Source: a virus
Direction: 5' to 3' (one strand)
IMG/VR virus record: IMGVR_UViG_3300046115_000069
Location: 1 to 52,244 of that record
Length of the DNA stretch: 52,244 nt
Under the pieces are notes generated by a model. That model saw only the letters and a list, made by a program, of their open reading frames with translations, had not been told where the DNA came from and made no database searches. The first letter of the stretch is position 1. Every line of letters starts with the position of its first letter. Below are positions 707-34,681 of the stretch, piece by piece. Made by a program: the position numbers and the translations under genes.

Positions 707-1389
707 CAGCCAGACCCCCACCACTTGTCAACACGTTCCTCAAGCCAGTCGAAGAAGACCTCTTGAATGGCGTACTCATCCTCTTCGTGGAACATAATGA
801 ACGGTCGTGCAGGGATAGCGGCAACGCCACGCTTATCTCCACCAGCTTCGTCCATACTGTCATAAGCTTCGCCTACGACATCTCGGCCACGAGCTCCTTC
901 GCCAAGCTTCTTCCGCGCAGCCGTAAGTCGATTGCCAAAGCCACCAATGCCTGCTTGGTGAATTGCACCGTACCAAACACTACCAGGCAAGCTTGTGATG
1001 ACCGCACCATTCTGACTGATCGTCCAAATGCCTCGAGAGGTCGCAACCTTCTTCAGTTTACCGGAGCGAAAGAGGATCGGATGGTCACGACCCTTACGAC
1101 GCTCGACGGTGAAGGGTGCCAACTCTTCCCAAGCAGGACGCCCTTCTGATGCGAAGTTCATCTTAAAGCTAGGAATCATAACCTGCACAACGGCGCGTGT
1201 CAATGGTTCCTTAAAGGACCGAATGTCCATCCCCAACTTATCGATGCGACTAGCAATCATGCCGATCGAGGGGTGGAACTCAAAGTCAACACCGGTCAGA
1301 TTGCGCGCAAAGACCAACCCACCTAGGGCTGAGTTGATGTCGCGAGTGCGCGGCCTAGCCCCTCCCGAAGACCTTGTGGGGCGTGCCAC
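706..1389 (-). CDS. Mu gpG-like virion morphogenesis / head-tail completion protein
   Basis: GTG start overlaps the upstream TAG (TAGTG). Motifs WYGAIHQAGIGG and IPARPFIMF resemble the phage virion morphogenesis (Mu G) family. Confidence 0.7.
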   Translation of the reverse strand: MARPTRSSGGARPRTRDINSALGGLVFARNLTGVDFEFHPSIGMIASRIDKLGMDIRSFKEPLTRAVVQVMIPSFKMNFASEGRPAWEELAPFTVERRKGRDHPILFRSGKLKKVATSRGIWTISQNGAVITSLPGSVWYGAIHQAGIGGFGNRLTAARKKLGEGARGRDVVGEAYDSMDEAGGDKRGVAAIPARPFIMFHEEDEYAIQEVFFDWLEERVDKWWGSG

Positions 1390-1844
1390 TAGAATGCCTT
1401 GCCCATGCTGAAGTGGGCATCACCTAGCGAGGAGTCGGCACTCGTTGGGCTCTGCCCCGAGGAAGCATCGTTGGGGTAGAAGCTTGGCTGACCAGAGCCA
1501 GTGTCGGACGGCAATGCGTCCGGAAGATTGATTGTACCATCGATAATGCCGACGATGAGCATCTCAGCGTTCGCCTGAAGCGCGCGAGCGTACTCGGGAA
1601 CCGTCTCTTCATCTTCGCTGTAGGCCTTGGCGTAGAGCCACGCCACGTACATCTTCGCAATGGCAGTGCGAACGAGACTCGGTGTGGCAGTAACGTCTAC
1701 CCAAAGGCTTACGTCGTACGAGGACGAGATCCTAGCAAGGACTTCGCCTTCGATCTGGTCGCAGAGGTCAGTGTCGATATCGCCAACACTGAACTTGGAA
1801 GTACGGACCCAGCCCTTTGCATTCTGTACAGTGATCCTAGACAT
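1389..1844 (-). CDS. Head-tail connector/adaptor-like protein
   Basis: GGAGGG RBS 7 nt upstream of ATG 1844 (in-frame GTG at 1850 is an alternative). Sits after the capsid genes. N-terminal region looks gp6-like by eye. Confidence 0.6.
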   Translation of the reverse strand: MSRITVQNAKGWVRTSKFSVGDIDTDLCDQIEGEVLARISSSYDVSLWVDVTATPSLVRTAIAKMYVAWLYAKAYSEDEETVPEYARALQANAEMLIVGIIDGTINLPDALPSDTGSGQPSFYPNDASSGQSPTSADSSLGDAHFSMGKAF

Positions 1845-1941
1845 CTTCACTCCCTCCGTGAAGTAGTCCTCGGGGCGGATCCCTCACCGTCCTAGAACCG
1901 GTGCTCGTCATAGGGATCCGCCCCGCGGGTGACCGAAGACG

Positions 1942-2157
1942 TCAGACGCCGGTGCCCTCGTCGTCGTTGTCTTCTTCGGTGTCGTCTTCGAACGGGTTCT
2001 TCATGGCTTCATCGGTCACGAGGGCGGTCCCAGCAACGCCGCCTTTGGCAACGTTGCCGTCGTCGTCGTACCGACCCCGCCAGACCTCGGGCTCGCCGGA
2101 GTCCGCAGGACGGTTCTCGTCCTCGTCAGCCAGCGGGTTCCGACTCTCGTCCGTCAT
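1942..2157 (-). CDS. Small highly acidic protein (71 aa)
   Basis: AAGGAGGA RBS 5 nt upstream of ATG 2157. Overlaps the previous ORF by 32 nt. D/E-rich. Confidence 0.5.
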   Translation of the reverse strand: MTDESRNPLADEDENRPADSGEPEVWRGRYDDDGNVAKGGVAGTALVTDEAMKNPFEDDTEEDNDDEGTGV

Positions 2158-2356
2158 CCGCGTCCTCCTTGTCCTGCTTCTCGACCTCGACAACGTCGAC
2201 CTCGCGGATCGAGCCGCTGTCCCAGAGCTCGCGCATCTCTTCCTTGGTCAGGCCCTTGACGACCGAACCGGACTCGAAGAGGAAGCGCTCGACGTCGCCA
2301 TCACCATTCACCCGGCCGCCGTCGATCTTGGTAACGGCCACGTATGCCTTTGCCAT
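2126..2356 (-). CDS. Small acidic protein downstream of the major capsid gene (76 aa)
   Basis: GAGGAGG RBS 6 nt upstream of ATG 2356, immediately after the capsid stop codon. Confidence 0.6.
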   Translation of the reverse strand: MAKAYVAVTKIDGGRVNGDGDVERFLFESGSVVKGLTKEEMRELWDSGSIREVDVVEVEKQDKEDADDGRESEPAG

Positions 2357-2367
2357 GTTCAGCCTCC

Positions 2368-3336
2368 TCAGGCAACCGCTGCTTTGATCACGTAGCCTGC
2401 GACGGACTTGCCCGCGTCGGCAGTGCCCGCGTCGCCCTGGGCGACCAGCTTGAGGTCGTAGGACCGCTGGCAGCGGATCAGGTCCGACTTCCGCGGCGCC
2501 TCACGCCAGCGGTCGACGTACTGCTGACCCCAGGTGTACTCGTAGCCGAAGGCCGGAACCTTCAGGCCGGGACGACCAGGAACGTAGGCGAAGATGACGT
2601 CCTTGCCCCAAAGGTAGCCGAGCGACGACGCCTGGCCGATGGCTGCGTTGTTGATGCCGGCACCCGGGACGATGATCTCGTCCACACCGATGATCGAGGC
2701 GATCAGTTCCTTGGTGACGATGCCACGCTCGGAGTACTTGATGCGCTCGATGAAGTCCGGGTGGTCCTCCAGGATCGTCATGACCTGGTAGGGGATGATC
2801 GCAACGTTCGGCTCGACGAAGATGCGAGCGTGGATCGCGGCCTTCGCGGCGCGCATGACGCCGATCGGGTCCGAGTTGGTGTAGTCGCTCCACTGTGTCA
2901 CGCCGGCGAGGGTGGTGCTGAGGCCTGCGGCGTAGTTCGCGGCGGTCGTCACCAGGGTCTTCATGGCGACCTCGCGGCCGAGCATGATCTTCGCAGTGAT
3001 GAGCTCCGTCGCGTCCCGGTCGGGGGCCAGCGGGCTGTCGACGTTCCGACGCTCCTCGTCCGTGACCGGTGTCTGGAGGGCGTGCTCCTGGCAGTAGTAG
3101 GCGTCGAGCGACAGCGCGACGCCCGGGACCTCGTTGGCAATGGTGCCGGGCGCACGGAGGTCGTCCTCCGGCTTCCAGGACTCGCGGCCGAAGACGTAGT
3201 ACTTGTCAGACTGCTTCATCACCGTCAGTGACGGGAAGAGCTTCTCACCGACGAAGCCGTTGTTCGGCCAGCCGACGCTGATGTTCGTCAGCACCTTGTC
3301 GATGTGCGCGTTGCCGGACCCAGTGGGTGCATACAT
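2368..3336 (-). CDS. Major capsid protein, lambda gpE-like family
   Basis: 322 aa. The N-terminal pattern FPSLTVMKQSDKYYVFGRESW...DLRAPGTIANEV...YYCQEHAL resembles Phage_cap_E. Follows the scaffold and DUF2190-like genes. Confidence 0.8.
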   Translation of the reverse strand: MYAPTGSGNAHIDKVLTNISVGWPNNGFVGEKLFPSLTVMKQSDKYYVFGRESWKPEDDLRAPGTIANEVPGVALSLDAYYCQEHALQTPVTDEERRNVDSPLAPDRDATELITAKIMLGREVAMKTLVTTAANYAAGLSTTLAGVTQWSDYTNSDPIGVMRAAKAAIHARIFVEPNVAIIPYQVMTILEDHPDFIERIKYSERGIVTKELIASIIGVDEIIVPGAGINNAAIGQASSLGYLWGKDVIFAYVPGRPGLKVPAFGYEYTWGQQYVDRWREAPRKSDLIRCQRSYDLKLVAQGDAGTADAGKSVAGYVIKAAVA

Positions 3337-3359
3337 GTGTTTTTGTCACTCCCCTCTGG

Positions 3360-3764
3360 TTACGGAACGATCCGGCCGGCAGGAACCAGCAGAACGTCGA
3401 TCTGGTCCAGGTCGGCGGCTGCCGCCTGGAGGGCAATGCCAGCCACTCGCGACGTGCTGGCCGCCGTGACGGCCTTGCCAGCCGCCGACGTGCTGACCTC
3501 AGCACCGATAGCGATCGCAGCACCTGCCACCACTCGCGAGATGCCCATGAGGCGAACGCCGACGACCACCTTGCCGAGCGCGACCTTGGCGCGGTCGACA
3601 GCCTCCTGCACAACACCGATCGGCACCTGCGTGATCGCCGAACAGATGTCGATGGTCTGGGACGCTGTGATTCGGACGAAGAAGAACGGTACAACACCAT
3701 TCGCGTTCGACGTGTTGTAGGTGGAGACGGCCGTGTAGCCCTTGTCGAGGACAAAGTTTGACAT
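3360..3764 (-). CDS. DUF2190-like head protein (possible decoration/cement protein)
   Basis: 134 aa, Ala/Val/Gly-rich. Lies between the protease-scaffold and the major capsid gene, as in Mu-like head modules. AGAGGGG RBS. Confidence 0.55.
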   Translation of the reverse strand: MSNFVLDKGYTAVSTYNTSNANGVVPFFFVRITASQTIDICSAITQVPIGVVQEAVDRAKVALGKVVVGVRLMGISRVVAGAAIAIGAEVSTSAAGKAVTAASTSRVAGIALQAAAADLDQIDVLLVPAGRIVP

Positions 3765-5438: not shown

Positions 5439-7052
5439 TCAGCCTCCGGAACGGTCGACTCCTGTGTTGCTTCGTCCGGATCCCTTTGGTGGAAGGTTTT
5501 GCTGTCGGCCTCCGCCTCGCTTGTTCTTGGCGTCACCCTTTCCACCATTCTTCGGATCGTTGGGGTCATCGATGGGGTCTCCATTCTCGTCCACCTCCGG
5601 TGGATCACCTGCGGCGGTAACCTGTCGCCGTGCCGTGGCGAAGTCCTTCGGAGGCATGTCAAGTTCCTCACGGAAGGTCTCCTCGAGCACGTCGTCAGGT
5701 TCGATGACGCCAGCACCAACCAGGTTGCGCACGGTGAAGGACTGCGTCCGCAGGTCCTCCCATTCACCAATACGGCGACAGGTCAACTCGGGGTATTCGC
5801 GGTCGGGCCCCATAGTGAAGTTCTTGTCCACCATCTCACGAATCACGTATCGGTTCATGATGTCTGTGATGCAGGCTGCCACGTAGCGAGTCGACTTCAT
5901 GAACATGTCGAGGGAGTCACTCTTCGCAGAGGTCTCCTTGATCCAAGCACCCAACACGTTCGCCATGATGGCCATGTCATGGTGCTCGATCGACTTCATA
6001 CAGTCGACCATCTGACCTTCCACCTTGGCGAAGAGCAACTCCCACATCGGCGGTAGGACGACATGGGCTCGCTCGTTGGTTCGCAGGTTGCGTCCGAGCT
6101 CGTCGGCACGATCCTTGTCGTCCTTCGTCCAACCCATGGGCAGCTTGATGACCGGAATGCCGATGCCGTGCCGTTCCTTCTGAATGCCGTCGATCTTGTA
6201 CAGGGTGTCCTTGTAGAACCAGTGCTTGTAGACGCTTCTCAGGACTGAAATGCCAGTTAGGTCTCCCGCCTCACCCTCGAGGTTGAAGATGACCAGCTTA
6301 GCGATCGGGATGGTGACGGGCTTCTGGGTCGGATTGTCAATCGACCCTTCCATCTCGATAGAGTCAGGACCGCCGTGGGCGTCGTAGTTGAACTCGCAAA
6401 CATCCAAGGGGTGCCGAGGCGCCAACTTGCGAAGCTTCTGAACGAACTTCCCACCGACAAGCTGCGGCGGGTTCCAAACCTTCTCGAAGGGCATGTAGCC
6501 ATACTCGGCACATAGCAGCACGTCATTGAGGAGGTTGAACCAAGAAACGTTCAGTTCCTTGAACAGGTTGTTCTGAACAAACTTGGCAATCTTCTTGTCC
6601 CTCGACGTGTTGCTCCCAGGCTTCATGAACCAGTGCGCGGCCAGCAGTGGCGTCTTCAGGGCACGCAGCGAGCCTCGAACGATGCCATCATTCCGCTTCA
6701 TGCGGTAGAAGGTCGTAAGTCCCTCACGCCCCCGAAGCTCAGCCACCCACTCCTCGCGGGTGTACGAGGTCCAAGGGCTTGGCGACGCCGAACCAATCTC
6801 TCGCAGGTCCTGAGAGGTCGTAGCGAGAAGGGCATGGCCCTTGGCACTGGTCTTCGCCTTGTCGGTCATGATGATGTAGCCGTGCTCGGCATTGGCGTCC
6901 ACGAACTCGTAGTTCGACAACACCTCAGCCATCACGATCCCACGGGCCGCAAGCTCCTGCGTAAGCTCAACGCTTCCAGCATCCTCATTGGCATCAATGG
7001 CTCCGTGTGCCGGCAACACCTCCACACGGCCATTGGAATCTGTGGCAGTCAC
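5439..7052 (-). CDS. Portal protein
   Basis: 537 aa, GTG start, immediately downstream of TerL and upstream of the protease/scaffold. Charged, Gly-rich C-terminal tail. The family assignment (Mu gp29/DUF935-like) is only a guess. Confidence 0.75.
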   Translation of the reverse strand: MTATDSNGRVEVLPAHGAIDANEDAGSVELTQELAARGIVMAEVLSNYEFVDANAEHGYIIMTDKAKTSAKGHALLATTSQDLREIGSASPSPWTSYTREEWVAELRGREGLTTFYRMKRNDGIVRGSLRALKTPLLAAHWFMKPGSNTSRDKKIAKFVQNNLFKELNVSWFNLLNDVLLCAEYGYMPFEKVWNPPQLVGGKFVQKLRKLAPRHPLDVCEFNYDAHGGPDSIEMEGSIDNPTQKPVTIPIAKLVIFNLEGEAGDLTGISVLRSVYKHWFYKDTLYKIDGIQKERHGIGIPVIKLPMGWTKDDKDRADELGRNLRTNERAHVVLPPMWELLFAKVEGQMVDCMKSIEHHDMAIMANVLGAWIKETSAKSDSLDMFMKSTRYVAACITDIMNRYVIREMVDKNFTMGPDREYPELTCRRIGEWEDLRTQSFTVRNLVGAGVIEPDDVLEETFREELDMPPKDFATARRQVTAAGDPPEVDENGDPIDDPNDPKNGGKGDAKNKRGGGRQQNLPPKGSGRSNTGVDRSGG

Positions 7053-10581: not shown

Positions 10582-10633
10582 TACCGGATGTCATCAGAGG
10601 CTAGCTGAACCTAAGATCAGAGGGAGGTGGCAA

Positions 10634-10720
10634 GTGACCAAGCTGCAATGGGCGATCATGCGACAGATCCCCAATACGGTACTGTTCGCCCTGGCTCTAG
10701 GAGCCATGATCGGAGGTTAG
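10634..10720 (+). CDS. Possible 28-aa hydrophobic peptide
   Basis: GGGAGGTGG RBS 3 nt before GTG. TM-like NTVLFALALGAMIGG. Very short. Confidence 0.3.
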   Translation: MTKLQWAIMRQIPNTVLFALALGAMIGG

Positions 10721-10721
10721 C

Positions 10722-10958
10722 GTGACGTACGTGTCCAGACTTCGAGCCAAGCTGGATCCTCAGCATCCATGCAACAAGAGCTTTCCAGGTACCGGAAGGC
10801 CACCGCCGGACGACGACAAGATCGAAGAGGACTTCCAAGCGGACCTGCTGAACGGTTACCGAAGGTACGTTGGGACTGGAAAGAACCGCAGGAAGAACCG
10901 GTGCGAAACATGCTTCCAGTACCGGAGTGCCAACGGAACGTGTAGCTGCCAGGAGTAG
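10722..10958 (+). CDS. Hypothetical Cys-rich protein (78 aa), TAG-terminated
   Basis: GTG start just after the preceding TAG. C-terminal RCETCFQYRSANGTCSC. Confidence 0.55.
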   Translation: MTYVSRLRAKLDPQHPCNKSFPGTGRPPPDDDKIEEDFQADLLNGYRRYVGTGKNRRKNRCETCFQYRSANGTCSCQE

Positions 10959-14748: not shown

Positions 14749-15117
14749 ATGACCAGATGTTGTAAGTGCAAGTGCGAACTGACGCTGGAGAACTCTTCGG
14801 CCAGCGATGCCTACTGTAGGCTTTGTCGAAGCGCATACAACAGCCAGGCAGACGGTTCTAGACGACGCATGCACAACATGCTCTACAGAACAGGCCTTAG
14901 GTTCACGCTTGAGGAACTGGTGGCCTTCGCAGAGACGTGTGATGGATTCTGCGACATTTGTAGAGATCCGATCACAGGACGTAACAGGCACCTAGACCAT
15001 GATGCCAATACGGGCAAGCTTCGCGGCTGGCTTTGTGGCAATTGCAACATGGGCATAGGCAAGTTTAAGGATGACCCGCAAAGGCTATCCGCAGCCATTG
15101 CCTACTTGACCCACTAA
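14749..15117 (+). CDS. Recombination endonuclease VII-type nuclease with an N-terminal Zn ribbon
   Basis: CDICRDPITGRNRHLDHDANTGKLRGWLCGNCNMGIGKF matches the Endonuclease_7 pattern. Lower G+C. Confidence 0.85.
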   Translation: MTRCCKCKCELTLENSSASDAYCRLCRSAYNSQADGSRRRMHNMLYRTGLRFTLEELVAFAETCDGFCDICRDPITGRNRHLDHDANTGKLRGWLCGNCNMGIGKFKDDPQRLSAAIAYLTH

Positions 15118-15176: not shown

Positions 15177-15280
15177 AAAAAGAAAAAGCAAAAGCGCAGT
15201 AGAGACAAGGTCATAAACGATCTCCGAGATCTACGTGATTTCCAGATCGAAACGCTGTACAATTGAGGTAAGACCAAAGG

Positions 15281-15865
15281 ATGAAGGAGCACACAGTGAG
15301 CGACAGCAACCCGTTCGACGCGAACGTCCAGGAAGAGAATGGTGTGGAGCTCGAGACCACCGACGACGGCGACGTGACCGACGACAGCTTCGAGCAGGAC
15401 GTTGAGACCGTTCCGGCGAGCAACGAGGACGTCGAGGTCGTGCCCGCTGCCCCGACCGCGCAGACGGTCCAGGCTCAGACGAAGGCGCCGGCCCGTCCGG
15501 TGGTTCCCGAGGGCTACATCACTCCGGTCCAGTTCGCCAAGGAGCTGACCGAGAAGCTTCGCAAGGACGGCGTCCTGGCCGAGGGCGAGGTCATCGCGCC
15601 GCAGGTGATCTACAGCTACGTCAACCAGGGCAAGAAGGCCGGTGCGGACCCCGCCAAGACCCTCAAGAGCTACGAGGAGGGCGGCCGGGTCAACCTCCTG
15701 AAGCGCGACGAGGCCTTCGCGTACTGGGCGGGCAAGGCCCAGCGCGTGCAGGAGCGGCTGCGCGCGGCCAAGGAGAAGGCCGCGGCCAAGGAGAAGGCCG
15801 CCACGCCGGTGCCCGTCGTCGAGGCTGAGGCTGCTCCCGCGGAGCCGATCGTCGAGGTCGAGTAA
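15281..15865 (+). CDS. Hypothetical protein with an acidic N-terminus, a central conserved segment and a basic AKEKAAAKEKAA tail (194 aa)
   Basis: AAAGGATGAAGGAG region. The central segment is paralogous to the 10198 product. Confidence 0.65.
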   Translation: MKEHTVSDSNPFDANVQEENGVELETTDDGDVTDDSFEQDVETVPASNEDVEVVPAAPTAQTVQAQTKAPARPVVPEGYITPVQFAKELTEKLRKDGVLAEGEVIAPQVIYSYVNQGKKAGADPAKTLKSYEEGGRVNLLKRDEAFAYWAGKAQRVQERLRAAKEKAAAKEKAATPVPVVEAEAAPAEPIVEVE

Positions 15866-15888
15866 CAAACAAGGGCCTCTGACAAGCC

Positions 15889-16227
15889 GTGAGGCGCGAG
15901 TTCGAAACTCGCCAGAGGTACGTGCACATCTTGTCAAATGTTGATGCAGAAGCACGTAAGGCTACTTGCTCTGAGTGCGGACCTGTGACTATTGTACATC
16001 AAGGAAAGGGTCGCTATAAGTGTACTGTAGCTCGAAAGGCTTACCATAAGCCATACAGAGCTTACGTTGACAAGCAATGTGCAAAATGTAACTTCGTGGC
16101 TGTCGATCCATGCCAGTTGGATGTGGACCACAAGGACGGTAACCATCAAAATAACGAGCTGTCAAACCTTTGGACGCTGTGTGCCAACTGTCACAGGCTA
16201 AAGACGCTGCGCCCTGATTTGTTTTGA
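15889..16227 (+). CDS. HNH endonuclease
   Basis: DVDHKDGNHQNNELSNLWTLCANCHRLKT. N-terminal CSEC...C Zn ribbon. Visibly low G+C. Confidence 0.85.
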   Translation: MRREFETRQRYVHILSNVDAEARKATCSECGPVTIVHQGKGRYKCTVARKAYHKPYRAYVDKQCAKCNFVAVDPCQLDVDHKDGNHQNNELSNLWTLCANCHRLKTLRPDLF

Positions 16228-16235
16228 TTTCTTGC

Positions 16236-16308
16236 GCACCTGTAGTTCATCGGCTGAACGGAAGCCTCTAAAGCTTCGCGTAAGTGGGTTCGACTCCCAC
16301 CAGGTGCT
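16236..16308 (+). tRNA. tRNA with anticodon CUA (amber suppressor type), copy 1
   Basis: Hand fold: GCACCTG/TA/GTTC-ATCGGCT-GAAC/G/GAAGC-CTCTAAA-GCTTC/GCGTAA/GTGGG-TTCGACT-CCCAC/CAGGTGC/T. All stems are Watson-Crick. U8, A14, GG, U33 and A37 are present. Anticodon CTA at 16268-16270. Confidence 0.85.
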
Positions 16309-16394
16309 CGTGTAACAACACCGTCGAGGAAACCGACGTGAAAAAACCATGACCCGGGCGGGTACAAAGCTACGAGCCTAAGCCCGCCCGCCTA

Positions 16395-16466
16395 GCACAC
16401 GTAGCTCAATGGATGAGCAGGCGCCTCTAAAACGCTTGGACGAGGGTTCGATTCCCTCCGGGTGCA
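16395..16466 (+). tRNA. tRNA with anticodon CUA (amber suppressor type), copy 2
   Basis: Hand fold: GCACACG/TA/GCTC-AATGGAT-GAGC/A/GGCGC-CTCTAAA-ACGCT/TGGAC/GAGGG-TTCGATT-CCCTC/CGGGTGC/A. One A.G mismatch in the acceptor and a C.A at 31-39. Anticodon CTA at 16427-16429. Confidence 0.75.
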
Positions 16467-16599
16467 CGGAAAGGTAAGAGACAAAGCGTCCCAGGCATCC
16501 TCGGATGGTTTAGGGAGACAGCGGGAGTGACGTCCCTCGCCTCGGCTGTATGTAGGGTACCATTACCTGTGGCCGGACAAATTCTTACCTTTGCACCAA

Positions 16600-16669
16600 G
16601 GGGAAGCCGGTACATGGTAGACTAGCTAGTTGCCGGACCGGTTTGGAGGTTCGAGTCCTCCCTTCCCCA
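16600..16669 (+). ncRNA. Non-canonical tRNA-like element: perfect acceptor stem and T-arm, no recognisable D or anticodon arms
   Basis: GGGGAAG...GGAGG-TTCGAGT-CCTCC-CTTCCCC-A. The 38 nt in between form only CCGGT(16607-11)/ACCGG(16637-41) around a 25-nt insert. Confidence 0.5.
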
Positions 16670-16678
16670 CGAAAGATT

Positions 16679-16701
16679 GCCACCTTGCGGTGGCTTCTTT
16701 T
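16679..16701 (+). terminator. Intrinsic terminator GCCACC-TTGC-GGTGGC followed by TTCTTTT
   Basis: 6-bp GC stem, tetraloop and T-run directly after the tRNA cluster. Confidence 0.8.
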
Positions 16702-16745
16702 AAGGCTGGTTAGTGTATAACTGACTAGCACTAGGAGGTGAGCTG

Positions 16746-16982
16746 GTGGCAAAGAAGCTCGACTTCGGAACTGGTGAGTTGGAAGTGCTCCAACGCGTCG
16801 TCGACGAAGCCATCGAGACTGAACAGGCGTTCCAGGCACACGAAGAAGCAGACGGCGTCTGTTTAGGGGCGCCGCTCTTCGAGGTCGAAGGAATGCCTGT
16901 CATGACAGAAATGAAGGCTGATTCCATCAGCTACGAGGAGAACCTGAAGCGAGTCAAGGCGAAGCTAGAGGAGGTGAAATAG
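16746..16982 (+). CDS. Hypothetical acidic protein (78 aa)
   Basis: TAGGAGGTGAG RBS, GTG start. Confidence 0.6.
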   Translation: MAKKLDFGTGELEVLQRVVDEAIETEQAFQAHEEADGVCLGAPLFEVEGMPVMTEMKADSISYEENLKRVKAKLEEVK

Positions 16983-16983
16983 C

Positions 16984-17406
16984 ATGACGGAAGGAATGCC
17001 TGCACAGTTCGACCACTGCATGCGTGTGTACGCGATGATGGACAGCGAGTCGCGGACCGAGGAGGTCGATGGCAATCCTGAAGGGATGTCCGTCGAGAGG
17101 AAGGTTTGGGAGGGTCATACCACCAGGATCTTCAACGACTTGCGCCTGTCGACGCCGTACTACACGTCGGTGATGGCACACCTCAAGCGCATGGGCTGCG
17201 TCGAGCAGCTTCGCCGAGGCGGTGGCAGTGCCACATCGTTGTGGCTTCTGATCCGCGAACCCACCCTGGACCTGTACGAGAAGAAAGGGTCAGGGCACGT
17301 CAATCCAACGACGCTGACCGGCCGCACCGCCGAGAACGAGCGCAACATTCGCGAGCTCAACCGCAAGATGGACATCATCCTACAACACCTGGGAGTGAAG
17401 CTGTGA
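16984..17406 (+). CDS. Putative winged-helix DNA-binding protein (140 aa)
   Basis: GGAGGTG RBS. YYTSVMAHLKRMGCVEQLRRGG resembles a MarR/wHTH recognition region. Confidence 0.6.
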   Translation: MTEGMPAQFDHCMRVYAMMDSESRTEEVDGNPEGMSVERKVWEGHTTRIFNDLRLSTPYYTSVMAHLKRMGCVEQLRRGGGSATSLWLLIREPTLDLYEKKGSGHVNPTTLTGRTAENERNIRELNRKMDIILQHLGVKL

Positions 17407-27380: not shown

Positions 27381-29573
27381 ATGACTACTCCGGACGCTTT
27401 GAGGGCTTTCTTTCAAACAACATTCGGCAAGAGTCAAGGAGTCCTTGGCTTTGCTGTGATGTCGATCGACAAGAAGGAATTCAAGGAGTACTTCTTCGAC
27501 TGGCCTCGGGACATGAACGAGATCATTCGTTGGGTCGACCTGAAACGCATTGAGTACAATGTGTACTTCTGTCCCCAGTTGTTGGAAAGCCGAGAGCGTA
27601 CCAAGGATAATGTCAAGGCATGCACTAACATTTGGGCAGACTTGGACGCATGTAGTCCCGACAAGCTGCTCATGGAACCAACGTTCAGCATCGAGTCTTC
27701 GCCAGGACGTTATCAAGCCCTGTGGTGCTTGGACGATCCGGTGGACCCGCTGACCGCGCAGGACCTCGCGATGCGAATCGCGTACTACCATGCAGGTCAA
27801 GGCGCTGACCGAAGCGGATGGGATCTCACACAGCTGCTGCGAGTGCCTTCCACCTTCAACTACAAGTACTCACCCCACAGTTTCGAAGCGCCCCAAGTAA
27901 CCGTTCTAAAAGTTAACAAGGTCAAGTTTCACCTTTCAGACTTTGAAGTGTACCCTCCAGTCAAAGGGACCAAAGAGCTTACACTGCCACTACCCGAAGC
28001 AGGAGAGCTTCCGGACGAAGAACCACTAGACATCATGCAACGTAACCGGTACCGTTTGAACCCTCACGCATTCGGTTTGTTCTCCCAGGAACCAGCAACC
28101 AAGAGCTGGTCGGAAGCATTGTGGCGCCTTCTTATGTTCTGCTTTGAGGCAGGATTTACTAGGGAGGAAGTGTACGTTGTCGCAAACAAGTCAGCATGCA
28201 ACAAGTACTCACGTGACGGTAAGCCATCGACGTACCTCTGGCGCGATGTCTGTAGAGCCTTCCTTCGACACCACGAGAACATCAACTCAATCGTCACAAG
28301 TTCTGAACAAGAAGCAATCATTGACGATGGGGAGATCAAAGACCTTGCGGCCAACGATACCTTCGTGGAGCAATATATTCGATGGGCTTCGAGCGTTGGT
28401 GATGCAGCCACGCAGTACCATCAGGCAGGAGCCTTTGTTATCTTGTCTAGTATACTGTGCGGTAGCATTCGAGTGCCTACTTCTTTCGGTGCTATCATCC
28501 CGAATCTTTGGTTTATGATCCTTGCTGACACCACCCTCACCAGGAAGACCACCGCGATGGACATGGCGATGGACATGGTGTTGGAAGTCGACGAGGATGT
28601 GCTCCTAGCTACGGATGGAACCATTGAGGGCATGATGCGTTCCATGATGATGCGACCGGGGAAGCCTTCGGTGTTCCTGAGAGATGAGTTCACTGGACTC
28701 ATGGAACAGATCACCAAGAAGGACTACATGGCAGGCACAGCTGAGCTCCTGACGAAGCTGTACGACGGCAAGCCGCAGAAGCGTGTCCTATCGAAGGAGG
28801 TGATCGATGTTAGGAGGCCGCGCCTAGTTCTCTTTGCTGGAGGCATCAAGGATCGAATGCAGTCACTGTTGACGTATGAACACGTGAGCTCAGGCTTCAT
28901 GCCTCGCTTCATCTTCATCACTGCTGAGTCGCAACCTAGCAAGGTGCAGCCTCTCGGGCCTCCATCCATTCGAAACATGGGTGAGAGGGACTTCATTCAG
29001 GGACGCGTTCGAGCAATCTACGAACATTACAATCGTGACACGACCTTGACTCTGAAGGAACAGAACCTCACAGCAACAACGACAATGCAGTGGGACACGG
29101 AGTTGACTCCCGACGCATGGGCACGTTATGGTAAGTTCGAGAAGGCCATGACTATTGCAGGGACCAGCTCCGAGAGAGCCGACCTCATGGTGCCTACGTA
29201 TACGCGTCTGACGATCTCAGGTCTCAAGGCGGCAGCGCTGCTAGCCGCCAGCCGCAAGTTCGCTGACGAGAAGGTTGTTATCGAGGAGGGAGACATCGTC
29301 CGTGCCATCAAGTACGTTTCTGAGTGGCGCGAGTACGGGAACAACGTACTCAACGGCATTGGCAGGACAACGCTTGAGAAGGACTTGGAAAAGGTGCTGG
29401 GATCCATCGTTCGTAATCCGGGAATTACCCGATCGAAATTGATGCAGAACCACCACCTCACATCACGTACTGCTGATGCAACATTTTCCACCCTCGAACA
29501 ACGAGGACTCATTACGCGGACGCGTAGTGGTACTGCCCAAACGTTCTACCCAATCTTGGCAGGAGTAGTATGA
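27381..29573 (+). CDS. DNA primase (RepB'/prim-pol-like N-terminus) fused to a DUF3987-type helicase-like domain and a C-terminal wHTH
   Basis: GAGAGGGGGTG RBS. VYFCPQL...NIWADLDAC...IESSPGRYQALWCL...LLRVPSTFNYKY resembles plasmid/phage RepB-type primases. 730 aa. Confidence 0.6.
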   Translation: MTTPDALRAFFQTTFGKSQGVLGFAVMSIDKKEFKEYFFDWPRDMNEIIRWVDLKRIEYNVYFCPQLLESRERTKDNVKACTNIWADLDACSPDKLLMEPTFSIESSPGRYQALWCLDDPVDPLTAQDLAMRIAYYHAGQGADRSGWDLTQLLRVPSTFNYKYSPHSFEAPQVTVLKVNKVKFHLSDFEVYPPVKGTKELTLPLPEAGELPDEEPLDIMQRNRYRLNPHAFGLFSQEPATKSWSEALWRLLMFCFEAGFTREEVYVVANKSACNKYSRDGKPSTYLWRDVCRAFLRHHENINSIVTSSEQEAIIDDGEIKDLAANDTFVEQYIRWASSVGDAATQYHQAGAFVILSSILCGSIRVPTSFGAIIPNLWFMILADTTLTRKTTAMDMAMDMVLEVDEDVLLATDGTIEGMMRSMMMRPGKPSVFLRDEFTGLMEQITKKDYMAGTAELLTKLYDGKPQKRVLSKEVIDVRRPRLVLFAGGIKDRMQSLLTYEHVSSGFMPRFIFITAESQPSKVQPLGPPSIRNMGERDFIQGRVRAIYEHYNRDTTLTLKEQNLTATTTMQWDTELTPDAWARYGKFEKAMTIAGTSSERADLMVPTYTRLTISGLKAAALLAASRKFADEKVVIEEGDIVRAIKYVSEWREYGNNVLNGIGRTTLEKDLEKVLGSIVRNPGITRSKLMQNHHLTSRTADATFSTLEQRGLITRTRSGTAQTFYPILAGVV

Positions 29574-30520
29574 GCACCGAATTCATCGACCTTCCCAAGC
29601 CTACTGCAGGCGCCTTCGATCCGTTGAAGTACCACGACAGCTGCGCAATCGTCAGCGGTGGGATGGACAGCGTGACGCTGGTCTACGACATGGTCAGCCG
29701 CGGCATGAAGCCACACCTTCTGTCCTTCAACTACGGACAGCGGCACAAGAAGGAGCTAGCGTTCGCGCACATTGCCGCGAAGACCTTTGGCCTACGACAC
29801 GACATCATCGACCTCAGTAGTCTGACGGGGCTCATCAGCAACTCGGCCCTCACCTCCGATGTCGCTCGACACACCAAGCCTATGGCGGCACAGGAGTGGT
29901 CGGCCGGCAAGGAAGCCGGGTGGGTCAGCACGCCGCACATCGAGGTGCCTGAGGGACACTACGCCGCTGACAACATGGCGCTGACGGTTGTTCCCAATCG
30001 GAACATGATGATGCTCAGCATCGCTGGGGCCGTCGCAGTCAACTACGGCTACAGCCAGATCGGCACGGGAGTCCACACCGGCGACCACTACCAGTACCCG
30101 GACTGCCGTCCAGACTTCGTCTACGCTGTTGGGCGCACCTTGAAGAAGGGCAACGAAGGCTTCCACAAGTTCTTCCTCGATGAGGACCTACGCGACGAGC
30201 TTCGAAGCACCAAGAAGGTCCTCGGCCAGGACATTCAGGGCGACGAGGGCATCCTACCCATCCTGGCGCCCTACCTAGAAGCGTCCAAGCAGGACATCGC
30301 CGTTCGTGGCTTCGAGCTGGGCGTGCCGTGGCACCTCACCTGGTCGTGCTACAAAGGCGAAACGAACCACTGCGGACGGTGTGGCACCTGCGTCGAACGT
30401 CTCGAGGCGATCGCCGGTGCCCAGAAGGTCATGGTCGAACGGTACCCCGCTACTGCCAACGTGTGGGCTGACTATACCGTCTACGACGACAGTGAGTACT
30501 GGAAGGTCGTGACCAAGTAA
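29570..30520 (+). CDS. queC: 7-cyano-7-deazaguanine (preQ0) synthase QueC, with insertions
   Basis: SGGMDSVTL PP-loop, FNYGQRHKKE, and C-terminal Zn site CYKGETNHCGRCGTCVERLEA. At 316 aa it is longer than a typical QueC. Confidence 0.9.
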   Translation: MSTEFIDLPKPTAGAFDPLKYHDSCAIVSGGMDSVTLVYDMVSRGMKPHLLSFNYGQRHKKELAFAHIAAKTFGLRHDIIDLSSLTGLISNSALTSDVARHTKPMAAQEWSAGKEAGWVSTPHIEVPEGHYAADNMALTVVPNRNMMMLSIAGAVAVNYGYSQIGTGVHTGDHYQYPDCRPDFVYAVGRTLKKGNEGFHKFFLDEDLRDELRSTKKVLGQDIQGDEGILPILAPYLEASKQDIAVRGFELGVPWHLTWSCYKGETNHCGRCGTCVERLEAIAGAQKVMVERYPATANVWADYTVYDDSEYWKVVTK

Positions 30521-30708
30521 TGGGCGGCGACGTCTTCTACCCCGTTCCGTCCGACGACAATATGTCGGACCAGGAGATTCGATTGGAGGCCGCTCAGATC
30601 GTTGCACAGGTTTGGCAGGGCTCCAACGCGACGTTCGACGACCATGGCGACCCCGCCCTCATCGACGAGATGAAGCGCGTCGCGCAGTACATCCGGGAGG
30701 GGAACTGA
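30520..30708 (+). CDS. Hypothetical protein embedded in the deazaguanine cluster (62 aa)
   Basis: TAATG coupling to queC and TGATG coupling to queD. Confidence 0.55.
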   Translation: MGGDVFYPVPSDDNMSDQEIRLEAAQIVAQVWQGSNATFDDHGDPALIDEMKRVAQYIREGN

Positions 30709-31094
30709 TGTTCCGCATCGCCAAGGTGTTCGAGTTTGAGGCATCGCACCAGCTGCATGGTCTGCCGGAAGAGCACCAGTGTGGCCGACTCCACGGACAC
30801 AGCTACAAGATCGAGCTGACGTTCGTCGGCAGCGTCCTAACCGATGAGGGGTGGCTGTTCGACTTCGGACAGATGAAGACCTTCAAGCAATTCGTCGACG
30901 AGCGACTCGACCACCGGCACCTGAACGATGAGATGGCACAGCCGACGTCGGAGAACCTGGCACGGTTCCTATACGACACGGCCAGTGACATGCTCTACAG
31001 CAACGCCTTTGGTCTCGTGGCCGACGAGGTCTACCTGGAGAAGGTCCGCGTCAGCGAGACGGCGAAGACCTACGCGGAATACTTTGGGGTGTGA
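30708..31094 (+). CDS. queD: 6-carboxy-5,6,7,8-tetrahydropterin synthase QueD
   Basis: FEFEASHQLHGLPEEHQCGRLHGHSYKIEL. Confidence 0.9.
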   Translation: MFRIAKVFEFEASHQLHGLPEEHQCGRLHGHSYKIELTFVGSVLTDEGWLFDFGQMKTFKQFVDERLDHRHLNDEMAQPTSENLARFLYDTASDMLYSNAFGLVADEVYLEKVRVSETAKTYAEYFGV

Positions 31095-31095
31095 C

Positions 31096-31833
31096 ATGCT
31101 ACGTGTGAACGAGATCTTCGGCCCAACGATCCAAGGTGAAGGCACTACTGCCGGACGGCACTGCCTCTTCGTTCGCGTCGCCGACTGCAACCTCGAGTGC
31201 AAGTGGTGTGACACGCCGTACACCTGGGCCTTCACCAAGGAGAAGGCTGCGAAGCATGACTCAGGCACTCGCCACGACAAGCTGCTGAACTCGATTGAGA
31301 TGTCAACAGCTGACATCATGGACGCGCTACTCGAGAACTGGATGATCTACTCACAGCCGACAATCGTCGTCATCTCGGGCGGCGAGCCCCTGATGCAGCA
31401 GCCAGGTCTGGCCGAGTTGCTACAGGAGCTCAAGGAGCTCAAGCACGAGACACACATCGAGACGGCTGGCACCATTCAGCCGTCGGAGATCCTCGATCAG
31501 CACGTCACACAGTACAACGTTTCGCCCAAGCTGACGAACAGCGGCAACCGCCTTGCGAAGCGGTACAAGCAGGACGTCCTGAACTGGTTCTCGGACAGCG
31601 TCAAGGCCTGGTTCAAGTTCGTCGTGACGCATCCGGAGGACCTTGACGAGGTTCGTGACATCGTCAACATGTCGGAGATCGATCCTCGACGAGTCATGGT
31701 CATGCCTGAGGGTACTACCATCGACAGGAACGTTGAGGTCGGCCGGAAGGTCATCGATGAAGCCTTGCAGCTTGGCTACGGCTTGAGCTTCAGGTCGCAC
31801 GTGCTGTTGTGGGGTGACGGGCGTGGCAAGTGA
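31096..31833 (+). CDS. queE: 7-carboxy-7-deazaguanine synthase QueE (radical SAM)
   Basis: EIFGPTIQGEGTTAGRHCLFVRVADCNLECKWCDTPYTW. Confidence 0.9.
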   Translation: MLRVNEIFGPTIQGEGTTAGRHCLFVRVADCNLECKWCDTPYTWAFTKEKAAKHDSGTRHDKLLNSIEMSTADIMDALLENWMIYSQPTIVVISGGEPLMQQPGLAELLQELKELKHETHIETAGTIQPSEILDQHVTQYNVSPKLTNSGNRLAKRYKQDVLNWFSDSVKAWFKFVVTHPEDLDEVRDIVNMSEIDPRRVMVMPEGTTIDRNVEVGRKVIDEALQLGYGLSFRSHVLLWGDGRGK

Positions 31834-31879
31834 TCGTCATGAGCACGACGGCTTTGCAGGGCACAACTCCACACGGGCA

Positions 31880-32266
31880 TTGAATCCCTCGTTTGGCAAC
31901 GCACGGACGAAGCTGCAGCTGGAGAACCAGCTTCGACAGTTCAGCCCTGACTGGTGGCTCAAGCAGACGCCACCTAAGGGTGCGCGCAACGCGTACCACT
32001 GCAGCACGTGTGGTCAGTACATCGTCACGATCGACATGGACAAAGGCACGACGCCTATTCGGATGGGCTGCAAGGCGACCGAGGGCTGCAACGGTGCGTC
32101 GGTATCGTCAGGCTATCCGCCAGAGCCGATGCCAGCGGAGCTCGAGTCCTGCCGAGTGTTCGAGTGGTATCGCCCGGAGGCTAGTGCCTTGGGGCTATTC
32201 CACGAGGACCAGCTCGTCGACGAGTACATCCGTGCTGGCGGTCTACTACTAAGGGAGCGCGAATGA
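31880..32266 (+). CDS. Hypothetical Zn-ribbon protein embedded in the deazaguanine cluster
   Basis: ORF open from 31814 (GTG). TTG 31880 follows the CTCCACACGG motif. CSTCGQY...CKATEGC. Start uncertain. Confidence 0.5.
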   Translation: MNPSFGNARTKLQLENQLRQFSPDWWLKQTPPKGARNAYHCSTCGQYIVTIDMDKGTTPIRMGCKATEGCNGASVSSGYPPEPMPAELESCRVFEWYRPEASALGLFHEDQLVDEYIRAGGLLLRERE

Positions 32267-32321
32267 AGTACCTCTGGTATAGTATCAAGTTCGCCTGGGA
32301 CGTGAATAGGAGGGCACTGGT

Positions 32322-32969
32322 ATGAGCGACGACATCCTGCGAGCAGCAGGCTTCAGGTCATTGGATGAGAGCATGTTCATTCCGGGACCGGCAAAGGCAC
32401 TAACGTTCTCCGACGTGATGGACCCTGCAGCGGAGTGCCTGATAGCCCACACGGGCCTCGACATGAGCACGGAGCACGGCAAGGACACGCCGAAGCGGTT
32501 CGCGCAGATGCTGGAAGACCTGACGGCGTGCAAGTACTCTAGCGGCGAGCACATGGAAACTTGCATCAAGTGGAAGACGTTCGAGTCGACCAACGACGAG
32601 ATGATCGTGGTGCAGGACATCACCTTCACCAGCGTCTGCAACCATCACGTGGTGCCGTTCATGGGCGTTGCGCACGTCGCCTACGTGCCTCACCGCAGGA
32701 TCGCAGGCCTCTCTAAGTTTGCCCGGGTGGTGCGGCACTTCGCCCGACGCCTCCAGGTCCAGGAACAGCTGACAACTGACATCGCGGACTACTTGGGTGG
32801 GCACCTGGAACCTGCAGGCGTCGGAGTCATCATCAAGGCGGAGCACCTCTGCATGACCATTCGCGGTGTGGAGTCTCCGGGAACGAAGACCACAACGTCT
32901 GCCATGCGTGGCGTGTTCGCCGATCACGCCAGGACGGCCAAGGCCGAGTTCCTCAGCTTCATCCGGTAG
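32322..32969 (+). CDS. folE: GTP cyclohydrolase I
   Basis: VCNHHVVPFMGVAHVAYVPHRRIAGLSKFARVVRHFARRLQVQEQLT. Confidence 0.9.
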   Translation: MSDDILRAAGFRSLDESMFIPGPAKALTFSDVMDPAAECLIAHTGLDMSTEHGKDTPKRFAQMLEDLTACKYSSGEHMETCIKWKTFESTNDEMIVVQDITFTSVCNHHVVPFMGVAHVAYVPHRRIAGLSKFARVVRHFARRLQVQEQLTTDIADYLGGHLEPAGVGVIIKAEHLCMTIRGVESPGTKTTTSAMRGVFADHARTAKAEFLSFIR

Positions 32970-32993
32970 TCGCCATGCCTACCGGATCGCCAG

Positions 32994-33021
32994 GCTCGCG
33001 TTCGCCCTGCGGAACGCGAGC
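32994..33021 (+). terminator. Hairpin GCTCGCGTTC-gccctgcg-GAACGCGAGC
   Basis: 10-bp perfect stem between folE and the MazG-like gene. No U-tract, so it may be an attenuator or a processing site. Confidence 0.45.
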
Positions 33022-33116
33022 TGCCTATCAATGGCACATCAGGGGCAAGACTGTGCCGTGCGAACGTTGTAGTGCTGCCAATGCACTATACGAAAAGCTA
33101 CGAAAGAGGGCGAAAC

Positions 33117-33587
33117 GTGGAAATCGTTGACCTGATCGACACAGCACTAATGGACAGTGAGCGTTGGTTCCCTGACAAGGCCCATGAGCCTTTCTTCGTC
33201 GCAGCCTGCATGGCCGGCGAGGCTGGTGAAGTTATCAACCTAATGAAGAAGGTGGAACGCGGGACGCACACATGGACACCTGAGATGAAGACAGACGTGG
33301 CCGAGGAGATCGCTGACGTCTTCACCTACATGCTCGGGCTCTGCGGAGCTCTCGAGATCAATCTCGAGGAGGAGTACCACAAGAAGCGGAAGGCGAACGA
33401 CATCCGCTTCTCGGCCCGACGTGCACTGACTGAGGAGGCCATCACCAGCCTGACGCAGGTCATCCGACACGCAGGCCCGCCCATGGTCGTCGACCTCGAG
33501 GACCGCAACCGTCGACACCAGGACGGGCTATTCCGTTCGCCGGGCGAACGGTGCATGCGCACCAAGTGCTGGTGCGTTACAGCGTGA
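33117..33587 (+). CDS. mazG: MazG-like nucleoside triphosphate pyrophosphohydrolase
   Basis: AGAGGG RBS before GTG 33117. GEAGEVINLMKKVERG and EEIADVFTYMLGL helices. Confidence 0.75.
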   Translation: MEIVDLIDTALMDSERWFPDKAHEPFFVAACMAGEAGEVINLMKKVERGTHTWTPEMKTDVAEEIADVFTYMLGLCGALEINLEEEYHKKRKANDIRFSARRALTEEAITSLTQVIRHAGPPMVVDLEDRNRRHQDGLFRSPGERCMRTKCWCVTA

Positions 33588-33871
33588 GCGACGAGGTCGA
33601 CACGCCGACTGCGTTAATCGAAGAGGCCAGCAACGCCTTCGACACCCTCTGCGAAGAACGACATGTGATGGGATCCGCCAAGTACGGTCCCGTCAAGTTC
33701 CTGACGATCAACTCCATCGAGGAAGCAATGGCTGAGGTCCTCGACCTGGCCAACTACGCACGGTACACGTTCATCAAGCTGTGGCTACTGAACAGGCAGA
33801 TGCAGGACATCATCCCGCAGGAGAACCTTGGCACCAACAGCTTCGTGCCGAACAGCAAGGATGGTACATGA
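33584..33871 (+). CDS. Small all-alpha protein, possibly a second MazG/NTP-PPase-like protein (95 aa)
   Basis: GTGA overlap start. ...ERHVMGSAKYGP...EEAMAEVLDLANYARYTFIKL. Resemblance is weak. Confidence 0.4.
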   Translation: MSDEVDTPTALIEEASNAFDTLCEERHVMGSAKYGPVKFLTINSIEEAMAEVLDLANYARYTFIKLWLLNRQMQDIIPQENLGTNSFVPNSKDGT

Positions 33872-34680
33872 AAGTAGCCCTCATTCCCCCATTGGGTTGG
33901 GAATCCTACCTTGCACAGTCCACAGGCATCTTGATGGCATTGGCCCTAGAGACCTGCATCGAGAGCATGAACTATCCAGCAAGCATGCGTCTCGTTCGTG
34001 GTACAAGCAAGGCCCTCTTGATCCTCGACAACGGTGCCGCAGAAGGTCAGCAGGCCAAGAACGGCGCCATGAACAAGTTCGCACAGCACCTAGGAGCTCA
34101 CGAGCTCGTCCTGCCTGACGTGCTGGGATCACGCATGGGGACAATCGCGAAGGTGCATGAGTACTTCCGGTACACCAAGTGGGATACCGCTCTCACCTAC
34201 ATGGGTGTGGTACAAGGCGACAGCGTCCGACACGCACAGCAGTGCATTAGGGACTACGCCGGCATGCAGGTGCGCAGTTTCCCAGAGTCGCCCGAAGTGC
34301 TGCAGCCGATCAAGACGCTCGGCATCCCTCGACGTCTGATCCAGACCACCGAGGAGTTCTCAGTTCGTATCGACTTGGCGAACTGGATCACCGAACACTA
34401 TGGACGTCGCTTCGAGATCCACTTTCTGGGCGCTGCAGGTGTGTGGCCCCAAGAAGTCAAGTACGCAGCCAAGTACGCACCACAAGTCCGCTCGATCGAC
34501 ACGTCGTTGCCGTTCGTCTTCGCCCACCACAACGTCGACCTCGCGGCGATGACGTCAGCTCGACCCCAGACACGCAAACTCGAACGGCCGACGGGCTACA
34601 TGGTCGGCAGCCTGGTGAACAGGAATCCGACACTCATCCAGTCGAACATTGACACCTACCTGGCCTGGGCAAGGAGCTAA
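33868..34680 (+). CDS. dpdA: DpdA-like DNA (7-deazaguanine) transglycosylase, TGT fold
   Basis: The strand pattern LILDNGAAEG / LVLPDV / GVVQG / LGIPR / HFLGAAGVWP / VRSIDTSLPF parallels the TGT blocks DSGGFQ / ..D.. / IVQGG / IGGL / LLGVG.P / D.FD...PT. Lies in the que cluster. Confidence 0.7.
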   Translation: MKVALIPPLGWESYLAQSTGILMALALETCIESMNYPASMRLVRGTSKALLILDNGAAEGQQAKNGAMNKFAQHLGAHELVLPDVLGSRMGTIAKVHEYFRYTKWDTALTYMGVVQGDSVRHAQQCIRDYAGMQVRSFPESPEVLQPIKTLGIPRRLIQTTEEFSVRIDLANWITEHYGRRFEIHFLGAAGVWPQEVKYAAKYAPQVRSIDTSLPFVFAHHNVDLAAMTSARPQTRKLERPTGYMVGSLVNRNPTLIQSNIDTYLAWARS

Positions 34681-34681
34681 C

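Follow-up and report, generated by a model that had tools for sequence, protein, structure and literature searches.

Two tRNA genes with a CUA anticodon

The IMG/VR virus record IMGVR_UViG_3300046115_000069, which we analysed over all of its 52,244 nucleotides (hereafter, the window), carries on its plus strand two neighbouring transfer RNA (tRNA) genes, tRNA1 (16236-16309) and tRNA2 (16395-16467), both with the amber-reading anticodon CUA. ARAGORN, applied to the 52,244-base window, returns exactly two tRNA genes, each with a cta anticodon. Both match the Rfam tRNA model RF00005 over its whole length (model positions 1-71 of 71), tRNA1 at 53.6 bits (E-value 8e-9) and tRNA2 at 57.7 bits (E-value 6e-10), far above the gathering score of 29. 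A preliminary description of this DNA had placed the anticodons at 16268-16270 and 16427-16429, within cloverleafs with a seven-nucleotide loop C-U-[CUA]-A-A. The letters CTA do stand at these positions, the two programs agree on them, and the covariance model, which might have put another triplet at positions 34-36 or given scores typical of pseudogenes, kept CUA in both genes.

Both tRNAs are of the class I elongator type. Each has a 7-bp acceptor stem, a D-arm, a 5-bp anticodon stem and a T-arm, shows CUA at positions 34-36 in the centre of the 7-nucleotide loop CUCUAAA, and retains U8, A14, G18G19, U33, A37, A38 and the T-loop UUCGA; CCA is encoded in neither. tRNA1 has a 6-nucleotide variable loop and the discriminator U73, and its fold has a z-score of -3.35, while tRNA2 has A20, the discriminator A73 and two mismatches, C31.A39 and A5.G68. 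The proposal that the two bodies differ in their acceptor, D, anticodon and T stems holds for all four stems, and extends to the discriminator (U73 versus A73). As an analogue of tRNA2 we considered the tRNAs with a 4-bp anticodon stem that misread stop codons, and set them aside: the published cases unpair 27:43, not 31:39.

An independently made Logan assembly of this phage agrees at every base of the cluster (100% identity), which excludes assembly error as the origin of the anticodons. Since the first and last 127 bases of the window are identical (1-127 and 52118-52244), we take the genome to be complete and circular or terminally redundant, with a unique length of 52,117 bp, the same as that of the Logan contig, and a G+C (GC) content of 57%. 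No further canonical tRNA or transfer-messenger RNA (tmRNA) was found in these 52,117 bp with ARAGORN or Rfam. tRNA1 and tRNA2, the sole tRNAs of a complete genome, are thus no incidental members of a large tRNA array.

A megablast search of the tRNA region against GenBank phages gave no match. Its terminase shares no more than 35% identity with its counterparts in cultured actinobacteriophages, and 47-62% with those of about 43 IMG/VR contigs, many of them about 50 kb long, whose sample numbers suggest an origin in soil. Judged by these identities, the phage is novel. Individual relatives are designated below by L numbers.

ARAGORN labels the genes as tRNA-Pyl, its name for any tRNA with a CUA anticodon, and we rejected this identity. 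The hallmarks of tRNA-Pyl that we tested are a 6-bp anticodon stem, a 3-nucleotide variable loop, a small D-loop lacking G18G19 and a single base between the acceptor and D stems; our two genes have 5-bp anticodon stems, variable loops of 5-6 nucleotides, G18G19, and UA at positions 8-9. Pfam and PHROG scans of the open reading frames (ORFs) tested gave no member of the pylS or pylBCD families.

TAG as a terminator in a standard-code genome

Does this phage still use TAG as a stop codon? Among 67 genes called with a simple codon-usage-based caller, 30 end in TGA, 19 in TAA and 18 in TAG. TAG was thus rightly described as a stop in use, at a share (27%) nearer a quarter than the fifth first given. 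In the relatives that have no suppressor the share is 26% (97 of 369), so there is no sign of depletion here. ORFs of 907, 809 and 737 amino acids are unbroken in the standard code (the middle one had been given as 798 amino acids; the other two stand as first reported), and the terminase, portal, capsid, tape measure, polymerase and primase genes are intact in code 11. No in-frame TAG with coding potential on both sides was found on the coding strand, lysis and structural genes included, and the best-scoring candidates for such a TAG all lie antisense to real genes. Two TAG-terminated genes end where their families end: GTP cyclohydrolase I, or FolE (32322-32969), matches its PHROG profile up to position 198 of 200 at its TAG, and the 78-amino-acid protein ending at 10958 has homologues in at least five relatives that end at the same residue. 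We conclude, in agreement with the preliminary description, that the genome uses the standard code and that TAG is a genuine terminator.

A possible function of the tRNAs, put forward in the preliminary description, is programmed read-through of particular phage genes to give C-terminally extended isoforms. Twenty phage genes end in TAG, and tRNAs made early would be present during late protein synthesis. We translated all 20 TAG-terminated genes past their TAG and compared the products with the loci of about 50 relatives. In every informative alignment the relative stops in that column as well, and the similarity ends there; the high-scoring segment pairs that seemed to cross a TAG were discarded for this reason. 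The extensions have the codon scores of non-coding sequence, and their lengths are spread like those after TGA or TAA. Two neighbours in the same frame looked like candidate fusions and proved to be separate genes. FolE is already complete at its TAG, and the MazG gene behind it has its own ribosome-binding site and start. Likewise, the homologues of the 78-amino-acid protein stop where it does, and the 51-amino-acid ORF that follows has the ribosome-binding site GAGGAGG. The phage thus has no gene that depends on decoding UAG, which disfavours programmed read-through; with the relatives stopping in the same column for every TAG gene that has homologues, it is largely refuted in silico, and we hold it to be the least probable of the explanations considered here.

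The tRNAs could also mark an early step towards TAG recoding, by the route of Borges et al., in which suppressor tRNAs come first and in-frame TAGs in late genes later. Suppressor tRNAs were reported in close standard-code relatives of recoded phages and were read as preceding the code change (bioRxiv 10.1101/2021.08.26.457843). The TAG- or TGA-recoded gut phages (crAss-like, Lak, Agate and Jade) and their standard-code relatives share with the window a phage tRNA that reads a stop codon in a standard-code host. In the recoded phages the genome is GC-poor, the target stop is depleted, in-frame stops occur in late and lysis genes, and TAG is read as Gln. The window, however, has 57% GC, abundant TAG, no in-frame TAG and tRNA bodies that look Arg- or Lys-like rather than Gln-like; of the features of a TAG-recoded (code 15-like) genome, it has the suppressor tRNAs and lacks in-frame TAG, TAG depletion and low GC. 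The proposed route has a GC-poor genome with a depleted stop as its starting point, whereas the TAG share here equals that of the suppressor-free relatives. Moreover, no CUA tRNA was found in any of the roughly 50 relatives' loci that we fetched. An incipient code change is accordingly improbable.

Identity, recurrence and possible role of the CUA tRNAs

Which amino acids would the two tRNAs carry? Because both are class I tRNAs with short variable arms, bacterial tRNA-Tyr, tRNA-Leu and tRNA-Ser bodies are excluded, and Ala identity is excluded because both have A3:U70. Further comparison relied on a panel of bacterial tRNAs that is biased by the probe and is only suggestive. In it, 77 of the 113 tRNAs that share the T-arm and the 3' acceptor half of tRNA1 or tRNA2 are tRNA-Arg. 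The nearest bodies to tRNA2 are tRNA-Lys(CUU) and tRNA-Arg, at an identity of about 0.75-0.81; tRNA1 has no close relative among the bacterial tRNAs compared (at most 0.76), and Gln and Trp bodies are close to neither gene in the panel. The loop of tRNA-Lys(CUU), CUCUUAA, is one substitution away from CUCUAAA.

U35 is a strong determinant for the lysyl- and glutaminyl-tRNA synthetases. A20 and A73, both present in tRNA2, are determinants of Arg and Lys identity, while U73, as in tRNA1, is otherwise typical of Gly and Cys tRNAs. Normanly, Kleina, Abelson and Miller reportedly observed in 1990 that E. coli Arg, Ile, Met, Thr and Val tRNAs given a CUA anticodon accept mainly Lys, and that several others accept Gln, on account of U35. 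The resemblance of the two bodies to bacterial tRNA-Arg or tRNA-Lys is thus suggestive, and two different amino-acid identities for tRNA1 and tRNA2 are possible. A BLAST vote on isotype against annotated phage tRNAs was ambiguous (Trp, Arg, Asp, Asn, Val and Met) and was left unused.

CUA tRNAs of this style recur elsewhere. Scanning metagenome contigs of the Joint Genome Institute (JGI) with a pattern made of the shared D-arm plus CCTCTAAA returned two contigs, both too short for their genetic code to be judged. The first, the soil contig L187 (65% GC), has two unlike CUA tRNAs (L187a and L187b) in direct tandem, at 144-215 and 217-287; their discriminators are G73 and U73, and they score 58 and 64 bits, respectively. 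The second, L188 (39% GC), has a CUA tRNA at 875-946 amid Arg, Met and Leu tRNAs, which has A73 and the C31.A39 mismatch in common with tRNA2. Across the five CUA tRNAs of the window, L187 and L188, compensatory changes occur in all four stems, on GC backgrounds of 57%, 65% and 39% respectively. Exact anticodon-arm patterns gave a single chance match in IMG/VR (L001, with no tRNA and no similarity). A PTH2-type peptidyl-tRNA hydrolase suspected beside the L187 pair had no Pfam support and was dropped.

Suppressor tRNAs in standard-code phages are already known, and the window is a further case. A close parallel is the cultured Xanthomonas jumbo phage XacN1: it has two suppressor tRNA genes with CUA anticodons, its code is standard and TAG still serves as a stop, and when its amber stops were read through in silico, no homology extended beyond them (PMC5852040). 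The window shares this combination, and the same negative read-through result. The XacN1 genome, however, measures 385 kb, and each of its terminal repeats holds 29 tRNA-like genes, two of which are the suppressors; the 52-kb window has suppressors only. The T4-like Acinetobacter phage Abraxas (MT385367.1) is a cultured phage with no known recoding and has a CUA tRNA at 77783-77857, annotated as tRNA-Pyl under the same ARAGORN label; some 0.5 kb downstream of it comes a small gene whose annotation reads peptidyl-tRNA hydrolase or release factor 2-like. No gene of this kind was found in the window. Abraxas also differs in its size (167 kb) and in carrying several sense tRNAs beside its single CUA tRNA. 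We also looked at the 'tRNA-OTHER' or 'tRNA Undet' gene of Arthrobacter phage Hestia (MH910036.1, 49692-49767), which lies near an HNH gene, and rejected it: this tRNA-like gene, with a loop expanded to about 11 nucleotides, is no CUA tRNA.

Laboratory amber suppressors (E. coli supE, supF and Su7, and T4 psu1+) have the same anticodon, and their mechanism, competition with release factor 1, would match. The loop CUCUAAA is also that of supF and Su7. These suppressors are selected single-mutation derivatives of known sense tRNAs, whereas the window tRNAs are natural, paired and at most about 78% identical to the sense tRNAs we found.

Taking these observations together, we favour, tentatively and with less than even confidence, the reading that tRNA1 and tRNA2 are functional accessory amber suppressors acting in trans. 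They would be co-transcribed with the upstream early genes and excised by host RNase P and 3' processing; as CCA is not encoded, a host enzyme would have to add it. They would be charged by a host aminoacyl-tRNA synthetase to which U35 is acceptable or a recognition element, and would then vie with release factor 1 for UAG codons as long as the infection lasts. Because the phage proteins gain nothing recognisable from read-through, the benefit most likely lies in trans; one possibility is that partial global read-through of UAG would perturb proteins of the host or of co-resident elements during takeover. Tolerance of amber mutations could be a side benefit.

Several observations weigh against this reading. 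The phage ends 27% of its own genes with TAG and shows no adaptation of TAG usage, nor are backup stops any closer after TAG than after TGA or TAA. Efficient suppression would extend a quarter of the phage proteins, which points to weak suppression or very recent acquisition. The genes themselves have irregularities, namely the unusual 6-nucleotide variable loop of tRNA1 and the mispairs of tRNA2 at 5:68 and 31:39. The apparent recurrence of the loop is partly built in, since the search pattern forced loop identity in L187b and L188 and leaves L187a as the sole independent loop observation. Finally, in related phages the corresponding place is filled with tRNA-shaped RNAs that do not decode (see below), a hint that the locus may have a non-translational role.

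Amber tolerance might even be the main purpose, the tRNAs insuring the phage population against amber nonsense mutations. Classical experiments with T4, cited in PMC8386662, showed that suppressors carried by the phage itself can rescue its amber mutants. Such a benefit would nevertheless be small and diffuse, covering one of the three stop codons, and would leave unexplained why two unlike tRNAs are kept and why they recur as pairs; we regard insurance as highly unlikely.

What distinguishes the window from the known cases is its simplicity. In XacN1, the T4-like Acinetobacter phages and the relatives of recoded phages, the suppressors lie within large tRNA arrays or are explained as a step to recoding. 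The window is a cleaner case: a small complete genome with high GC, two unlike suppressors as its whole tRNA complement, abundant TAG and no target in cis. Such a case points to a role in trans, on host translation or immunity. Sabotage of host termination and a counter-measure against the host, the other two functions put forward in the preliminary description, both stay candidates.

A variable slot of tRNA-shaped RNAs and its surroundings

The two tRNA genes belong to a larger RNA cluster (16236-16700) that comprises, in order, tRNA1, a three-hairpin spacer, tRNA2, a structured region, a third tRNA-like element and a terminator. The spacer (16310-16394, plus strand, 85 nucleotides) folds with a z-score of -3.5 and matches no Rfam family. 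The structured region (16468-16599, plus strand, about 130 nucleotides) is closed by a long-range stem between GAAAGGUAAGAG and UUCUUACCUUUGC, as seen in the minimum free energy fold of 16467-16700 (z-score -2.0); it too has no Rfam match, and it has no homologue in L049 or L047. The third, non-canonical tRNA-like element (16600-16669, plus strand) scores 25.8 bits with the Rfam tRNA model, below the gathering score of 29, and gets no call from ARAGORN. Its acceptor stem is 7 bp long and perfectly paired (GGGGAAG/CUUCCCC), its T-arm is canonical and its discriminator is A, but its D and anticodon arms are replaced by a long hairpin with the palindrome CUAGCUAG at the tip, and it folds at -32.1 kcal/mol (z-score -2.9). 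A reading of 16467-16669 as a tmRNA was discarded, as there is no ARAGORN or Rfam tmRNA match and no G3:U70. An intrinsic terminator found by a terminator scan (16679-16700, plus strand; GCCACC-TTGC-GGTGGC, then TTCTTTT) closes the cluster. Because this terminator follows directly, and because no sigma-70-like promoter was found within 15200-17100, the cluster is probably the tail of an early transcription unit starting near 10198.

The corresponding slot varies widely among relatives. Two relatives keep both flanking genes and have no tRNA between them: in L025 the slot is empty and about 170 nucleotides long, and in L028 it is likewise tRNA-free. L049 and L047, which keep the flanking genes as well, have in the slot tRNA-like genes (10604-10707 and 5807-5915, respectively) in which an insertion of 38-42 nucleotides creates an anticodon arm of about 19 bp; their Rfam tRNA scores are 52 and 48 bits. 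L049 has in addition a D-armless tRNA-like element at 10795-10860, and L005 another at 2076-2153 on the minus strand; both share the architecture of the 16600-16669 element. In L009, a tRNA-like gene with a disrupted anticodon arm lies at 3349-3430 (minus strand), and the odd genes of L005 and L009 occupy similar positions. All of these tRNA-shaped genes, in L049, L047, L005 and L009, keep good acceptor stems and T-arms, while normal decoding is not possible for them. Judging from this comparison, the slot is accessory and fast-changing. A more distant relative, L039 (44% GC), has at 1102-3081 on the minus strand tRNA-Leu(UAA), tRNA-Thr(UGU), tRNA-Lys(UUU) and a tmRNA with the tag peptide ADYEALCAEFSTVTV; this group lies about 7-9 kb upstream of the L039 terminase, roughly the distance at which the window cluster lies. 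Two further matches in relatives are a type II hammerhead ribozyme in L025 (3896-3955, minus strand; 40.1 bits for a gathering score of 37) and, in L047 (12661-12741, plus strand), an ARAGORN tRNA with the 4-base anticodon cgcg and a sub-threshold Rfam tRNA-Sec match of 29 bits.

Within the slot, the best-conserved part is the spacer. It is about 93% identical to L049 10708-10794, where the flanking tRNA or tRNA-like genes differ and a flanking protein is only 58% identical. Two compensatory pairs (GC to AU and CG to UA) distinguish its third hairpin in the window and in L049. With these features the spacer is a conserved structured RNA. As a probe, the spacer had no match in the JGI metagenome collection and 14 in IMG/VR, with no extended similarity; the SNF2 helicase, used as an anchor for finding relatives, led to one distant locus only.

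Could the two CUA tRNAs themselves be mimics? They might serve, without decoding, as decoys or antidotes against a host immunity factor that targets tRNAs or a tRNA-handling enzyme (for instance an anticodon nuclease or an acceptor-end-modifying toxin), CUA being tolerated or selected since it reads no sense codon. The non-decoding tRNA-like genes with perfect acceptor stems and T-arms that fill the slot in L049, L047, L005 and L009 would fit this explanation, as would the window's own third, D-armless element. Phage tRNAs are also established as a counter-defence to tRNA-cleaving systems: a T5 tRNA-Lys counters PARIS (PMC11464382), and a T5 tRNA-Tyr counters retron and Septu effectors (PMC11555353, PMC13096335). 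Like the window tRNAs, these T5 genes are accessory, lie beside homing endonucleases and are kept for reasons other than codon usage; homing endonucleases adjoin such loci as an HNH gene does here. However, the documented anti-defence tRNAs all stand in for a host tRNA that has been cleaved, reading its sense codons in its place, which a CUA tRNA cannot do. In addition, the anticodon stem-loops of tRNA1 and tRNA2 are fully canonical, a needless feature in a decoy for an acceptor-end toxin, the CUA loop recurs independently in L187a, and PHROG and Pfam scans identified no defence-related partner gene. The decoy explanation is the main rival of suppression in trans, though we consider it rather unlikely.

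A 'tRNA-mimic slot' can also be envisaged, in which this soil phage family keeps, at a constant site closing its early operon, a rapidly changing set of tRNA-shaped RNAs that decode no sense codon. CUA tRNAs, tRNAs with anticodon arms of about 19 bp and D-armless minihelices of acceptor stem and T-arm would make up this set, with the conserved spacer between them, and would bind, titrate or mislead a tRNA-directed immunity factor or a tRNA-processing enzyme of the host; CUA would then be a 'harmless' choice for a full-length mimic. We give this reading slightly less credence than the decoy explanation. All the same, the variable slot of tRNA mimics, with its conserved spacer RNA, may be a more original lead than the suppressors.

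The gene upstream of tRNA1 and adjoining it encodes an HNH endonuclease (15889-16227, plus strand), with a weak Pfam HNH_3 match and matches to 14 PHROG HNH families. It has no counterpart at this position in the syntenic relatives L025, L028, L047 and L049, and no tRNA lies beside its nearest homologues in other places (54-57% identity), which rules out a mobile module made of HNH and tRNA. From its distribution, the HNH gene is an insertion separate from the tRNA slot.

HNH also enters into a last explanation, namely that tRNA1 and tRNA2 are neutral hitchhikers or decaying tRNA genes with CUA anticodons by chance, perhaps brought by the endonuclease. The absence of the cassette from relatives, the two mismatched pairs of tRNA2 and a TAG usage that shows no adaptation to the tRNAs would be expected in that case. 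Yet decaying genes would hardly score 53-58 bits with all nucleotides of the tertiary interactions intact, two independent bodies both have CUA, a second tandem CUA pair exists elsewhere, L188 shares C31.A39 and A73 with tRNA2, and the HNH homologues are unlinked to tRNAs. Chance origin is, to our mind, as improbable as insurance, and suppression in trans remains the reading we prefer.

The genes flanking the cluster encode a 194-amino-acid protein (15281-15865) and a 140-amino-acid protein (16984-17406). An endonuclease VII gene (14749-15117, plus strand; phrog_2633, 2.7e-23) lies 0.8 kb upstream of HNH. In the genome at large, a siphovirus-like structural module on the minus strand comprises terminase, a Mu/P23-45-type portal, protease, capsid, tail tube, tape measure, Dit and holin. 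The early/replication module, on the plus strand, comprises SNF2 helicase, exonuclease, a Sak4-like annealase, SSB, primase and PolA (34649-37078), the last with an N-terminal UDG-superfamily domain. No integrase was found among the ORFs tested against Pfam and PHROG, which fits the lytic phage first described. A second HNH endonuclease gene (37320-37640, plus strand) lies downstream of PolA. Lastly, a module for the biosynthesis of 7-deazaguanine (preQ0-type) lies on the plus strand within 29570-34680: genes resembling QueC (29570-30520) and QueE (30928-31833) are joined by that of GTP cyclohydrolase I, already described, and the gene of the MazG-like pyrophosphatase comes next, at about 33118-33587. 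The gene content of this module suggests that the phage DNA is modified.

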